DNA of 61,311 nucleotides, filler included, from Porpidia crustulata (Eukaryota): assembly GCA_964255105.1 (NCBI GenBank). It is 15 parts of 15 records of this genome, joined end to end, with 100 filler letters (N's around TTAATTAATTAA, not from the genome) between each part and the next. Parts side by side here need not be neighbours in the genome. Positions count along the whole stretch, not along the records: positions 36,944 to 40,940 come from CAXUWE010002181.1; positions 41,041 to 45,028 come from CAXUWE010002182.1; 13 more parts are not named here. One strand, 5' to 3'. Position numbers and translations under genes: made by a program. The notes beneath the pieces were generated by a model. That model saw only the letters and a list, made by a program, of their open reading frames with translations, was not told the origin of the DNA and did not search any database. Below, one piece after another: positions 36,824-41,414 of the stretch (the stretch's first letter is position 1; every line of letters starts with the position of its first letter).

Positions 36824-37632
36824 GGGGAGGATATAATTTGTCCNNNNNNNNNNNNNNNNNNNNNNNNNNNNNNNNNNNNNNNNNNNNTTAATTAATTAAN
36901 NNNNNNNNNNNNNNNNNNNNNNNNNNNNNNNNNNNNNNNNNNNGCGCCCCCCAGCAACGCAAAAACCCACCCAGCAGCCAACCATCCCAACCCCTATACC
37001 TTAAAACCTTCACTTTCAGTTCACCATGCCAACACGATCCAAGCACGGGAATCAAGAGCATTGTGCATTGCCATTCGCTGGCTTGAGATGATAACGGGGA
37101 TGGCCAGACGCTCGACTGACTGATAAGACTCGAGGAGAGCGGTATCCATGGTTCTACACTTGATGAACTATCTAGCACGGGAATACACCATCATAAGGCG
37201 ACTACAGTCTCACAGACATTCGGATCATATCACATACGATCTCCTCGATTGAGATATCAAAGGGCAAAAGGGGGGCTATAGAGGCGTCACGAGCGTTGGA
37301 GTAGGTACAGGCACGAACAATGATGCTATCCATCCGGTTTTATTATCCTCAACTAGCCTACGTAACCTATGCAACCTTCCGATTAACCACCGCTGATTTC
37401 GACAATTTGGGGGGGTGTTTGTGCCTAAGATACATATGGAGATTCCCTAGCTTTGAATACGGAAGAACTAAAGTTTTGTCCAAATGAAGGCATGTGCAGA
37501 TTGGATGTGCTGAGACTCGGCTTGACGTTGGAAAAGCACAGTTATTTGGCCCTACGTTGACTGCCAAAAATGACAACGTTAGCTGAAGCTTGTAAAGTGC
37601 GAGGTGATCCATATGTACCTTGACGCACAAAT

Positions 37633-38286
37633 CTATAGCCTAGACCCGTGAATGACCTTGTAGTCAACCGCAAGCTCGCGCCCCCCGTCATTAATAACCA
37701 ACACCCTCACGCTCCCACGCCCATTAGCAAACGAATCGTTGAGTCTTGACCACAATCCGCCTTGATCAATGACCGGAAGACCTTGCTTGACATCTCCAGT
37801 CTCGGTCATGGCGACAACACGACCATCGTCACGGATGTCGAGGACACGGTATTGCTTGAAGACGGGACCGAGCATATTCTGCACGATGACAGAGGGAGAG
37901 GGGTTGGAAACGAAGCTCGATTCTTCATGGAGTTGCTTGGTGAAGAGGTCGACGCCGAGGTAACGATGCTGGCCAGTCTGAGCTGAAGTGGTAATACGAA
38001 TGACCTGGCAAGGACGGCCTTGGAGGATCAACAGGTCGCCAATGCGGATGTGGTGGCAGGGAATGGTGATGGTGTTGGGGCCAATGGGACGATCGATGAA
38101 GCGGACATTCTCACGTACACCTTCGCGCATGCGGGTGGGGCCACGATCTTCCTCGCTGATGACGACCTCCTCGTGGTCGTGGCGGTGGTGATGACCACCG
38201 TGGAAGGGATGCATCACGCGGTCGGCGGCTTTCTCAATACCGTGGCGGAAGGAGTGGTAACGGCCGTCGTCGTCGTAGTAACCCAT
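37633..38286 (-). CDS. hex1: Woronin body major protein HEX-1 (canonical AUG form, 217 aa)
   Basis: MGYYDDDG start, His-rich segment, eIF5A-like fold TITIPCHHIRIGDLLILQGRPCQVIRI...GVDLFTKQLHEESS, C-terminal PTS1 -SRL. Confidence 0.97.
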   Translation of the reverse strand: MGYYDDDGRYHSFRHGIEKAADRVMHPFHGGHHHRHDHEEVVISEEDRGPTRMREGVRENVRFIDRPIGPNTITIPCHHIRIGDLLILQGRPCQVIRITTSAQTGQHRYLGVDLFTKQLHEESSFVSNPSPSVIVQNMLGPVFKQYRVLDIRDDGRVVAMTETGDVKQGLPVIDQGGLWSRLNDSFANGRGSVRVLVINDGGRELAVDYKVIHGSRL

Positions 38287-38978
38287 GTTGGAGCGGCTTG
38301 GAGGATCAACGGTAGTCTCGGCTTCGATTTTGATATCTTCCTTATGAGACTCGGGGCGGCGACGCTCGTATTCAACGTCGTAGGTTGGCTGGACGCGACG
38401 ACGGTAATCACGCTCTGTAATATCGATTTCCTCTTCGTAACGAGGGACTTCGACGTCGATTTTTGTTTCTGTGCGGCGTTGATAACCTGGTTCGCGGTAG
38501 CTGTTGTGGGAAGAAATGTCAGTGGACGTTGGCTTGAGCTTAATTGAAAATTTCGTACGATTTTGCAGGGGGCTCGTTGGAAAGGGGGACAATCGATAAG
38601 ACTGGGCTGAACTTACCGTTCTCTGGAAAGCTCTACTTCTGGGAAGTGGTCTCTGTGGTGATGGTGATCTTTGTGGTGGTGATGGCGATCTTCCTCTTCG
38701 TAGACTGTTACCTCTTCTTTGCTGCGCGGACGGCGATTACGATCCTCTTCGTAAATGATCTCTTCCTTTTCGTAGCGAGTACGATCTTTACCGTGAGGAA
38801 GAGATGCGGAGAATGAGGAGATCCGACTTTCGTGACCTTCCCGTCCGTCGCGCGAAGCTCCTGAAGGAAGTTGGGCCTCTCCTTCTACTCTGACGCGAGT
38901 AGTCTCTGTGGCAGCGTCGCTCCGGTACGACGACGGGAAGACACTGAAAGGGATCGGGACTCTGGCGTCAAAGTCCAG
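38287..38978 (-). CDS. hex1: Putative N-terminal extension of HEX-1 (long isoform, candidate CUG start)
   Basis: Exon 38978-38617 (LDFDARVPIPFSVFPSSYRSDA...), intron 38616-38501 (GTAAGT...CTGAC...CAG), exon 38500-38287 in frame with MGYY; 192 codons with no stop and no ATG. Confidence 0.7.
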
Positions 38979-41414
38979 GATGACGGGTATGGAGGGAGTC
39001 TTTCTCGAATGCCTCTCGAACCGTTAGGCTAACAATTCGAAAGGAAGACAAGAAATGACTCTTCTTGTAGCGGAGGAGTGAGGTGAGAGAGAGAGAAGGT
39101 GAAGGGTGACGAGTTGCCAGCAACACACTTCAATCGCTCAGTCTTGTTGACGTTAGAGATTCAATCGTACAGTAATTCAAGGGGAATTGAGCTATGCAAG
39201 ATGATCTTGTGACGATCTTGTTGTAAACAACGACAATTGATGATTGGAGTGGTTGTGAGGAAGAAGTGGGAGAGAGTTGATTCCGCGTTTGTTACGACTA
39301 ACCAACTTAGCGTTGTATTTGTTTTTCCACCAAGTCGCCCCGGCAACAGCTGCCTTTAACCATGGATCACCAAGTACACCAGGAGTCGACTAGACTGGTG
39401 GACCACGGTGCTATATGATAATTCCTAGGGAATATAAGGCGGTAGTATGCCGTAACAATACATCAATTACTCTCCTCTTTTTCGGCCGTTCAGCTGGCTC
39501 CTTTGATGTTTGGAAATTTTTAGGTATCAAGGTAGCTAGGACTTCGTGGACAGTAGGTCGTGGCTCTCATCCATTGGCCTATAGCTGAGTCGATGCAGCC
39601 TTCCATTCTTTGGTTGATCCATGCTCAACAGTAGGGAGCTTACCATTGGGTGAGCCATGCAGAATGTGGCTTTGAGCTTATGTATTCGCAATCACATTTG
39701 CGATTACTCTTGGGGTTCACTCCCCATCCGCCTTAAAGCTGTCTAGTCTCCCCAATCTTGCATATAACGCTTCGTGGCGTTATGTTTTTCCTGATATCTC
39801 GTCAGAGTAAGTCTCTGCTCAGGATATATATAAAGACTACTTCAAATCCACACAATACGGGCGACTGCCATGCTTTTGTCTCCTACGTTGGACAGTAATG
39901 GGCCTTTTTGTAAAGGTAACTCCAATACAAAGTGTAAAAGTATACGCATTTAACCAATCCCTCATGACTATATTTTGGTCATTATCAAACAATACAGCCT
40001 CGATGTTCGAAAGCTCGAGCCTTAAGATTATGGCGGTCAGGAGCTGACAGACAATTACCAATTGCCGCTACAGTTCATAGCTCGCTACGATGACATCCAC
40101 AATTCGTGTTTCTTTGTATGCGCATAGGGCTATTGTGGAGACCTACTTGAAATCAAGTCTCCCGGCTCCGGAAAATTTCAGCTACTTTGCACCGTTTTGA
40201 GGCAGTTATACATAGTATAGGCAACTGCGCCGAATACATGGAGTTATCGGCTGGCGGCAAACGCTTGCTCAGCATAAATGCCTTCTGTTACGTTCAGACC
40301 TTCCCCAACATCCCCAGCAGCCCACCGGATCAAGGTGGTGCCGAGCCNNNNNNNNNNGGGTTGATGAGGGTTGACGGAGAGTTGATTTGTTGACACATCA
40401 GGTATGAAATTGATGACTTTGATGTTGTTATTAGAAGGAGACTATTTAGGGGATAAGAAGGAAAAGGGTCTGGGAAACCTCTGCTGACGTCCTCAGTCCC
40501 AATCAAACCCCCTAATTCCAAAATGATGAAGATCAATGAAGGTTGATGGAGGATTGATGAAGGGTTTAATTAGAGAAAGAAAGGATTCTTGGGGGAGAGT
40601 TCGCAAGGGTTAGGGAAGTGTAGAATTTCCGGAAAGAACGGGAGAGGGTATTCTTGGAGAGAGGGTAATTCACAAGGGAAAGGGGTGGGGTTTGTAGGGA
40701 AAAAAGTAAAAAGAGATCTGTTCAAGATTGAAGAGTTTTAAGATTCTTCGTTTCATGAACGTCATACAAGACTTAGAACTCTAGCAAAAGTTTGTCGATC
40801 TTCATTCTTCTTACTTTTTGCATAATGTTCTTCTAGCAGTAACAGCATTCATGCTAATTCTACGTATAATCTGGAAACAAGATTCTTGTTGAACAGGCAG
40901 GGTGACTGTCGTAGTATTGCTACTGAATTACGTACAGAACNNNNNNNNNNNNNNNNNNNNNNNNNNNNNNNNNNNNNNNNNNNNTTAATTAATTAANNNN
41001 NNNNNNNNNNNNNNNNNNNNNNNNNNNNNNNNNNNNNNNNGGGCTATGGGTATCGATTAGCCGGATGAGCGCGATTTCCTCGAAGGAGCGGGGCGGGATT
41101 TCTTGGTAGTTGCGGTGGAGGGGGATATGTGGGATGGAGAGGCTTCTGTTATTGCGAATTAGATTGAGCTTTTAAGTGTTATCTTCGGATTATCACGTAC
41201 GATTGAAGCGTTAGATGAAAGCTGGCGGTAGCTTGGTATTGAGAAGATTCGTGCTTGGGTTTGTCATGACGAATGGAGTGAGTTTTTTATTTCGTAGGAG
41301 CTGCACATACGCCAGGCATCCTGGCTTGATCTCAATCAATTCCAATGGGTAAGTAAAGCATCGACCGTATTGGTGTCATTTCGTGGGAAAGTTCTATAGC
41401 ATATACATATCGAA

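Follow-up and report, generated by a model that had tools for sequence, protein, structure and literature searches.

The hex1 gene of Porpidia crustulata lies on the minus strand of the window, the whole stretch of 61,311 nucleotides analysed here (assembly GCA_964255105.1). Its product, HEX1, crystallises into the plug that seals wounded fungal filaments. A single spliced hex1 mRNA probably gives rise to two forms of this protein: a CUG codon, a weak start in a strong context, would yield a minor long HEX1, and leaky scanning to the main AUG would yield the major short HEX1. The probability of this reading is put at about 80%. A CUG-initiated long isoform, with the short form made by leaky scanning, had been proposed in an earlier note on the same DNA. 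Comparative tests support the proposal; actual initiation at the CUG and the ratio of the isoforms are inferences.

All coordinates of the earlier note were re-checked on the minus strand (Table 1), and its outline of the gene holds: translation finds the ATG of MGYYDDDG at 38286, a 192-codon open frame across a canonical 116-nt intron (38616-38501), an in-frame TAA that closes this frame, and a CTG in the context ATC-CTG-G, where 38981 is the A of position -3 and 38975 the G of position +4. The coding sequence (CDS) of the short form reads 217 codons, uninterrupted and without an intron in the window copy, from the main ATG (38286-38284, context CAAC ATG GG) to the stop codon at 37635-37633. 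Removal of the upstream intron joins ..GAA CG/C TAC.. (slash, splice junction) and preserves the frame. Between the CTG and the main ATG lie 576 nt of mature sequence, or 192 codons, which makes the long form 409 aa. With the TAA at 39026-39024, 15 additional codons are open 5' of the CTG. The core protein is recognisable as HEX1. The Pfam families IF5A-like_N (3.3e-07) and eIF-5a (7.4e-07) both exceed the curated cut-offs, and of the solved structures 8qlu_A ("Woronin body major protein hexA") matches best, with E 3.1e-103 across residues 72-288 of protein P0002; residue 1 of 8qlu_A aligns with the M of MGYY. The short form begins with MGYYDDDG, and the C-terminus, ...VIHGSRL, closes with the tripeptide SRL of a type 1 peroxisomal targeting signal (PTS1), in which both predicted forms end. 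A Pfam search of the extension found no family.

Table 1. Features of the hex1 locus, in positions of the window.
Feature	Position	Strand	Basis
Canonical HEX1 CDS (short isoform, 217 aa, MGYYDDD...HGSRL)	37633..38286	-	Translation, Pfam, 8qlu_A
N-terminal extension, portion encoded by exon 2 (YREPGYQRR...DITERDYRRRVQPTYDVEYERR...TVDPPSRSN); shares the frame of the main AUG	38287..38500	-	Translation; motifs IDxTEREYRxR and TVDPP common to relatives
Predicted intron within the extension, 116 nt, GTAAGT ... CTGAC ... CAG	38501..38616	-	Position (..SRER/Y.EP..) kept in most relatives
Exon-1 coding part of the extension, starts (L/M)DFDARVPIPFSVFPSSYRSDA	38617..38978	-	Translation, comparison
Proposed CUG initiation codon, context ATC CUG G	38976..38978	-	CTG in 80/80 loci; leucine-codon control
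Two-helix stem-loop of the 5' leader; 3' half is the 18-nt motif TCGAGAGGCATTCGAGAA at 39019-39002	38997..39060	-	Folding, alignment of 41 clusters
In-frame TAA at which the upstream frame ends, near the apex of the leader hairpin	39024..39026	-	Sequence
ATG-free sense-strand tract (leader, extension and intron)	38287..39360	-	ATG scan

Comparison with other fungi indicates that the extension is conserved protein-coding sequence under purifying selection on its amino acids. The exon-1 peptide matches 270 longer proteins among 580 candidates (E <= 0.01), which are HEX1 models of ~400-580 aa. Among the 120 matches listed of these 270, on which the following figures rest, the block xDF[DE][AG][RK][VI]P[IV]P occurs in 114, with x = L in 114/114, and the closest named model comes from the lichen fungus Schaereria dolodes (73% identity). 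A look-up of exon 1 in the ESM Atlas returned only ascomycete clusters at 0.77-0.81 and was uninformative. A profile search with the extension found 161 representatives at E <= 0.001 among 1.84 billion. A divergent group of proteins (LDFEARVPVPFSIFPSTY...) belongs to the Sordariomycetes (Colletotrichum, Xylariales, Trichoderma, Fusarium, Verticillium, Sordariales); 113 of 120 models of this type carry the block, its first position being L in 111 and M in 2. The taxonomy of eight named species places the block in seven classes (Lecanoro-, Dothideo-, Eurotio-, Geoglosso-, Leotio-, Sordario- and Xylonomycetes), all of them in the clade leotiomyceta. Long hex1 models with a DARVPIPF-like block, which the earlier note had mentioned for other filamentous ascomycetes, are found in these seven classes. 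Neither Pezizomycetes nor Orbiliomycetes appear among the matches listed, which is no evidence of absence.

In 11 locus pairs, the ratio of nonsynonymous to synonymous divergence (dN/dS) is 0.13-0.41 in the extension compared with 0.005-0.19 in the core. Many indels and repeat expansions notwithstanding, 21 transcript-like contigs (16 clusters) keep an open frame of 209-363 codons. In eight of the 11 pairs, silent sites have diverged less in the extension than in the core; between the window and locus L001, for example, synonymous divergence (dS) is 0.36 against 1.48. This hints at an extra constraint on the silent sites of the scanned tract, such as avoidance of ATG or the keeping of low structure.

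It is at the CTG itself that coding-type conservation of the block sets in. A single metagenome scan yielded 234 confirmed stretches, from which 80 loci were kept (L001-L080). Clustering these loci and the window at >= 95% nucleotide identity leaves 41 clusters, and one representative per cluster was compared. The first codon of the block is CTG in 80/80 loci. A at -3 and G at +4 are invariant in 41/41 representatives, within the flank GxC AAy CTG GAC. On the 3' side of the CTG, codon positions 1 and 2 are ~1.0 identical and position 3 is 0.5-0.98 identical. On its 5' side, identity is mostly 0.3-0.8 and lacks codon periodicity, the exception being positions -6 to -2 with the start context GxC AAy. 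Eight further invariant leucine columns, taken as a control, use 3-5 codons each, and CTG accounts for 0.17 of all leucine codons; the first leucine column is CTG in 16/16 within the same control. An in-frame stop lies only 3-4 codons 5' of the CTG in 20/80 loci (e.g. TAG GTC GTC AAC CTG), and no near-cognate codon lies between stop and CTG in these loci. It follows from these results that residues D2-F3 onward, which are invariant, must be translated; the only plausible start is the CTG. A conserved near-cognate codon at the onset of coding conservation is what the earlier note had suggested looking for; its contrary case, in which all orthologues start the block from an AUG, is at odds with CTG in every one of the 80 loci.

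The upstream region might instead be an untranslated regulatory 5' leader, conserved as RNA or DNA. The lower synonymous divergence in the extension (8/11 pairs) speaks for this explanation, as does a stem-loop, described below, that is conserved as RNA in all three phases relative to the CTG. It is nevertheless the least credible of the alternatives considered, given the codon periodicity 3' of the CTG, the frame kept open for 209-363 codons in 21 contigs despite indels and repeat expansions, the dN/dS of 0.13-0.41 and the stops that close the frame 5' of the CTG.

A further possibility is that the extension is real but takes its AUG from a further upstream exon spliced in frame, as in most database models. 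Most of the 120 listed models have an M 5' of the block, and the window holds a CTAAC-like site and AG dinucleotides near 39025; the earlier note had marked this branch-like site (about 39023-39027) as a possible route to an upstream ATG exon. However, the N-termini of the models 5' of the block differ by species, with nothing shared before FERHSRK or NLDFDAR, and several JGI models are flagged partial and start inside the region, at RHSRK, FERHSR or NLDFDAR. The 21 transcript-like contigs, which are spliced and 1.7-2.5 kb long, read from the CTG through HGSRL with the intron removed. Their leaders (101-321 nt) are contiguous in the 16 clusters, are ATG-free in 19/21 and contain an in-frame stop 3-54 codons 5' of the CTG. 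Seven contigs are colinear with genomic locus L027 from ~-250 to the end of exon 1 and then skip ~175 nt bounded by GTAAGT...CAG. The 5' ends of four of the seven fall within 12 nt of each other, 245-256 nt 5' of the CUG, these being assembly ends and not mapped cap sites. Contig L043 shows the same colinearity and intron removal against L042. Since nothing is spliced onto the leader, an upstream ATG exon fails in the relatives, where it is largely refuted. The CTAAC belongs to the loop region at the top of a conserved hairpin and is retained in the mature transcripts of relatives. Overall, such an exon is considered very improbable. The disagreement among the model N-termini is the behaviour of gene predictors forced to find an ATG. 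Six HEX1 models of 907-1992 aa (P0027, P0028, P0030, P0085, P0067 and P0061) look fused to upstream neighbouring genes, probably as another consequence of the missing ATG.

The depletion of AUG between the CUG and the main start is kept in exons, not in introns. In the window, the nearest sense-strand ATGs around the gene are at 39363 and 38286. Neither strand of the 61-kb window has an ATG-free gap longer than the 1077 nt between them, the runner-up being 575 nt. From mononucleotide composition, 13.6 ATGs are expected in the gap, in line with the "over a dozen" that the earlier note had given for 38287-39360, where it had found none. Only 0.22% of 5000 sequences simulated with a first-order Markov model are ATG-free, and this estimate is conservative because the simulation inherits the region's own depletion of AT and TG. 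From the CTG to the ATG of MGYY, no ATG occurs in any frame in 22/22 contigs with a continuous open reading frame (ORF), over 18,162 nt in which 196.6 are expected; besides the 21 transcript-like contigs, this set includes a single genomic locus, in which the intron is open by chance. The core CDS (500-870 nt) of the same 22 contigs contains 6-14 ATGs each.

The introns serve as an internal control. In 18 genomic cluster representatives, the mature extension contains no ATG in 11,940 nt (132.3 expected), whereas their introns contain 26 in 2,875 nt (34.2 expected), roughly the chance rate. These 18 are the representatives with a single-intron model out of 26 loci examined. The count leaves out L001, L008 and L034, which duplicate clusters already included (predicted introns contain the extra ATGs of L008 and L034), L042, which has ambiguous donors, L049, L050 and L061, which lack a single-intron model, and L067, which ends before the main ATG. 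Alignment of transcript L043 to L042, L049 and L050 places the intron at ~+281 to +509 (+281 to +471 in L049), and the two ATGs of L050 fall inside the intron so placed. At the protein level, Met is absent between the block and MGYY in 111/112 listed models showing both, and from the extension in 112/112 Sordariomycete-type models. The depletion reaches into the leader: the nearest ATG 5' of the CTG is at a median of 368 nt (range 114-499; 23 genomic representatives), compared with control ATG-to-ATG gaps further upstream on the same strand of median 30 nt and 95th percentile 122 nt. Maintenance of the depletion by selection, as the earlier note had supposed, is supported by these ATG-free exons and near-chance introns.

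The main rival to a single mRNA with leaky scanning assumes two promoters, with a long mRNA that yields only the CUG form and a shorter transcript, starting in or after the intron, that yields most of the 217-aa HEX1. Reports from other fungi describe alternative start sites and splice forms for hex1, and assembled contigs cannot exclude shorter transcripts. In its accessible part, PMC7762394 describes alternative splicing of a different, downstream intron. Two promoters would leave unexplained why in-frame Met and out-of-frame ATGs are purged over 576-1089 nt in exons only, the extension being ATG-free in 16 transcript clusters and 18 genomic representatives and Met being absent in 223/224 models. 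Selection would have no cause to clear in-frame Met codons and out-of-frame ATGs from the extension if leaked ribosomes had nowhere productive to go. This explanation is therefore regarded as unlikely, although it is the strongest competitor. A different alternative is that all HEX1 is made as a CUG-started long precursor and is cut to the MGYY form, the AUG then encoding an internal Met. Cleavage would reconcile a conserved extension with a small mature protein, and nothing direct speaks for it. It does not explain the total AUG depletion, and the MGYY AUG has a purine at -3 and G at +4 in 20/20 transcript-like contigs, with an invariant Met. A weak CUG start would also suit the high expression of hex1 poorly. 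Precursor cleavage thus appears highly improbable.

A conserved stem-loop lies in the leader just upstream of the CUG. In the window, a 121-nt segment has a minimum free energy of -40.3 kcal/mol (z -4.66; 0/200 shuffles fold as well), within which 39060-38997 forms a long two-tier hairpin. The consensus of the 41 representatives consists of two 7-bp helices, CUUCUUG/CGAGAAG and CCUUUCG/CGAAAGG. In their alignment, 95.5% of cells are paired, compared with 36-66% when the partner is slid by 1-3 columns. Changes on both sides are seen at four pairs, with CG 13, UA 10 and UG 8 in columns 45-104 and UA 26, CG 6 and UG 6 in columns 60-90, and the covariation score is reached by 0/500 shuffles. Because G-U pairs are frequent, the pattern fits sense-strand RNA only. 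Read from the alignment, the base of the hairpin is 22-29 nt 5' of the CUG, and the structure spans ~-85 to -22 relative to the CTG across L001-L080. The 18-nt motif of its 3' half, TCGARAGGCATTCRAGAA, occurs once in the window and lies 40-48 nt 5' of the CTG in 40/41 representatives, in all three phases; in-frame stops separate it from the CTG in 14 representatives. The peptide-like "FERHSRK" conservation 5' of the block is in fact conservation of nucleotides. A search of Rfam over 38200-39500 gave no matches at E up to 1. Candidate functions of the hairpin are start-site choice, binding of eIF3 or another RNA-binding protein, and mRNA localisation.

These elements suggest the following course of events. 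Transcription of hex1 would start somewhere 5' of 39060, within an ATG-free zone that extends to 39360, and the intron at 38616-38501 would be spliced out. Scanning 43S complexes would pass the stem-loop (39060-38997) and, ~20 nt further on, reach the CUG (38978) in its strong context (A-3, G+4). A minority would initiate there with initiator Met-tRNA and make a HEX1 of ~409 aa whose extra 192 residues begin with MDFDARVPIPFSVFPSSYRSDA. The majority would leak past the CUG, scan 576 nt that selection would have kept AUG-free in all three frames, and start at the strong AUG (CAAC AUG GG) to produce the 217-aa, crystal-forming HEX1. Our guess is that the long form, as a sub-stoichiometric subunit, serves to nucleate, cap or tether the lattice of HEX1. 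A more far-reaching proposal is rather doubtful: the hairpin may be a cis-element that sets the CUG-versus-AUG share, either because it refolds directly behind the scanning complex or because it recruits an RNA-binding protein such as eIF3. The stoichiometry of a minor long HEX1, which would nucleate, cap or tether the crystal, would thereby be fixed, or adjusted under stress, in an arrangement ancestral to most filamentous ascomycetes.

Several observations weigh against dual initiation from one mRNA. No ribosome-profiling, peptide or immunoblot evidence for a long HEX1 was found in any species, published purifications and blots reportedly give HEX1 species of ~19-30 kDa, and all solved structures found start at MGYY. 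In Porpidia crustulata, the transcription start, the splice and translation are predicted. Loci L049 and L061 have no clean intron model, and the stretch of L061 with its three ATGs (+172 to +589) is left unaligned and is taken as intron by this gap only. Six database proteins (P0272, P0364, P0130, P0246, P0210 and P0198) have M at or beside the first block position: two full-length models, from Colletotrichum karsti and Clonostachys rosea, and four short ORF calls, reading MDFEAR, MDFDAK, MDYDAR or MQDFDAR. This M may be a real ATG, a TTG, GTG or CTG written as M, or an artefact of the caller; a real ATG would confirm the N-terminus yet misfit leaky scanning in that lineage. The leaders of L054 and L055, which form one cluster, contain two ATGs and one ATG, respectively. 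They lie in the first 40 nt, ~210-220 nt 5' of the CUG, and may belong to an upstream ORF (uORF) or to contigs that extend past the true 5' end. A stable leader hairpin should hinder scanning, and a conserved hairpin 3' of the CUG is unsupported (RNAalifold consensus -4.57 kcal/mol; 0/12 pairs compensatory).

As a protein, the extension ranges from 192 to 363 residues across relatives; VPIPFSVFPSSYR is an example of its peptides. Its conserved parts are the invariant N-terminal (M)DFDARVPIPFSVFPSSYRSDA, VEGE..LP...RVGREGHE, an acidic/basic EEVRVYE region, ..SRER/Y at the intron, IDxTEREYRxR..P.Y, and TVDPP just 5' of MGYY, which is tandem in some lineages. The rest looks like a tail that is charged, rich in His, Arg and Glu, and probably disordered. 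In an AlphaFold2 model of the long isoform of L045, built on a shallow 20-row alignment, the mean predicted local distance difference test score (pLDDT) is 50, and the extension is almost throughout <50, with a weak helix at 110-127; these low values are weakly compatible with disorder. Peptide units repeated in tandem and specific to single lineages, REEVRVNETTVDPPRFQ and QQDVEFVQTSRTAPQPSQARFG among them, occur in the middle and C-terminal extension (loci L022-L030, L044, L047, L054, L072, L075 and L079). Their copy number varies between close relatives and gives extensions of 209-363 aa, always in frame and always ATG-free. In near-cognate initiation, the first residue is Met by an established mechanism; a CUG-initiated form should carry an MD- N-terminus. 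The type 2 peroxisomal targeting signal (PTS2) has the consensus R/K-L/V/I-x5-H/Q-L/A/F, a nonapeptide near the N-terminus. No PTS2-like motif was found by eye in the extension, and RVPIPFSVF has V at the required H/Q.

The proposed arrangement resembles several known systems. Longer products from upstream near-cognate starts include VP2 of adeno-associated virus (AAV), which starts at ACG ahead of VP3 at AUG, and the CUG forms of mammalian c-Myc, FGF2 and PTEN-L. The AAV pair is like the hex1 proposal in that one mRNA combines a weak upstream near-cognate codon with a strong AUG, so that the longer subunit is made in a low, fixed proportion to the major one, which self-assembles. All these proteins are unrelated to HEX1, and for HEX1 both the stoichiometry and a co-assembly are hypothetical. 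Structured RNA near a near-cognate codon is likewise familiar. Kozak reportedly found in 1990 that a hairpin ~14-20 nt 3' of the start assists non-AUG initiation, and in START, said to be structure-assisted non-AUG initiation, the hairpin is also 3' of the start. In hex1, by contrast, the conserved hairpin is 5' of the CUG (base 22-29 nt before it), and none is conserved 3'.

The closest analogue is cpc-1 of the Pezizomycotina, which has non-AUG N-terminal extensions (Ivanov et al. 2017, mBio, PMC5487733). As far as the accessible part of that paper goes, cpc-1 and hex1 share the subphylum, an in-frame extension conserved in its amino acids and a conserved near-cognate start with A-3 and G+4. 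The same part describes several near-cognate codons for cpc-1, with CUG kept in 73/100 species and ACG in 98/100, among AUG uORFs. hex1 differs in having a single CUG (80/80), leaders mostly without an upstream AUG, a 0.6-1.1-kb AUG-free tract and a hairpin just upstream. The terms hex, Woronin and NCU08332 do not appear in the portion of the text of PMC5487733, or of its 10 supplements, that was searched. In Ustilago maydis, peroxisomal 6-phosphogluconate dehydrogenase is made by non-AUG initiation at AGG/AUU (Kremp et al. 2020, PMC7214817). According to the accessible part of the report, this case is like hex1 in that a fungal peroxisomal isoform arises from near-cognate codons in an annotated 5' untranslated region. 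There, the extension supplies a PTS2, unlike the HEX1 extension, which lacks a PTS2-like motif, and both HEX1 forms already carry a PTS1. Hex and Woronin go unmentioned in this accessible part of PMC7214817.

The long CUG-started form appears to be absent from gene annotations and from the open-access literature searched. None of the open-access papers and preprints searched links hex1, HexA or Woronin bodies to non-AUG initiation, leaky scanning or extension peptides; gene-structure work in subscription journals (on T. reesei, A. oryzae, A. fumigatus, M. oryzae and N. crassa) lies outside this coverage and could hold data from 5' rapid amplification of cDNA ends (RACE) or immunoblots. In the accessible part of a study on V. 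dahliae Hex1, long database N-termini are ascribed to faulty annotation, as probable errors, and HEX1 isoforms are attributed to alternative splicing of the intron just after MGYYDD (PMC7762394). As described there, these isoforms resemble the present pair, since the same gene gives two proteins differing near the N-terminus. They differ by ~20 residues 3' of the AUG, and the present long form adds 190-360 residues 5' of it. In four Leotiomycete-like loci (L042, L049, L050 and L061), ..GAT GAA GAT G/GTAAG directly follows MGYYDEDG and resembles the alternatively spliced hex1 intron. For Metarhizium, the accessible text of PMC7559983 gives a length of 405-534 aa for the majority of 460 Hex1 entries and does not settle the "mature type". 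An A. flavus model of roughly 490 aa or more is used, in the accessible text of PMC6371581, without comment.

HEX1 is a textbook self-assembling organelle protein, studied for wound sealing, development and virulence in many fungi. Should the long form exist, studies with the 176-221-aa protein saw one of two conserved products, deletion mutants remove both, and more than 200 database models carry invented N-termini 5' of the block. It would also provide a simple explanation for the "unexplained length variation" of Hex1 in the accessible part of PMC7559983 and the "annotation artefacts" in that of PMC7762394. With its invariant CUG, 0.6-1.1-kb AUG-free tract, introns as a built-in control and upstream hairpin, hex1 would be an unusually clean natural case of a near-cognate start, well suited for testing how start-codon stringency affects isoform ratios. 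If the proposed role of the hairpin is also true, a near-cognate start assisted by upstream structure would control the assembly of an organelle core.

Genes neighbouring hex1 in the window are of ordinary fungal types and encode a major facilitator superfamily (MFS) transporter, a fungal-specific transcription factor and an aminotransferase. Runs of N occur as 44-nt pairs about every 4.1 kb (e.g. 36844-36887 and 36900-36943) and also at 40348-40357, 1242 N in total, and the hex1 unit at 37633-39360 is untouched by them.

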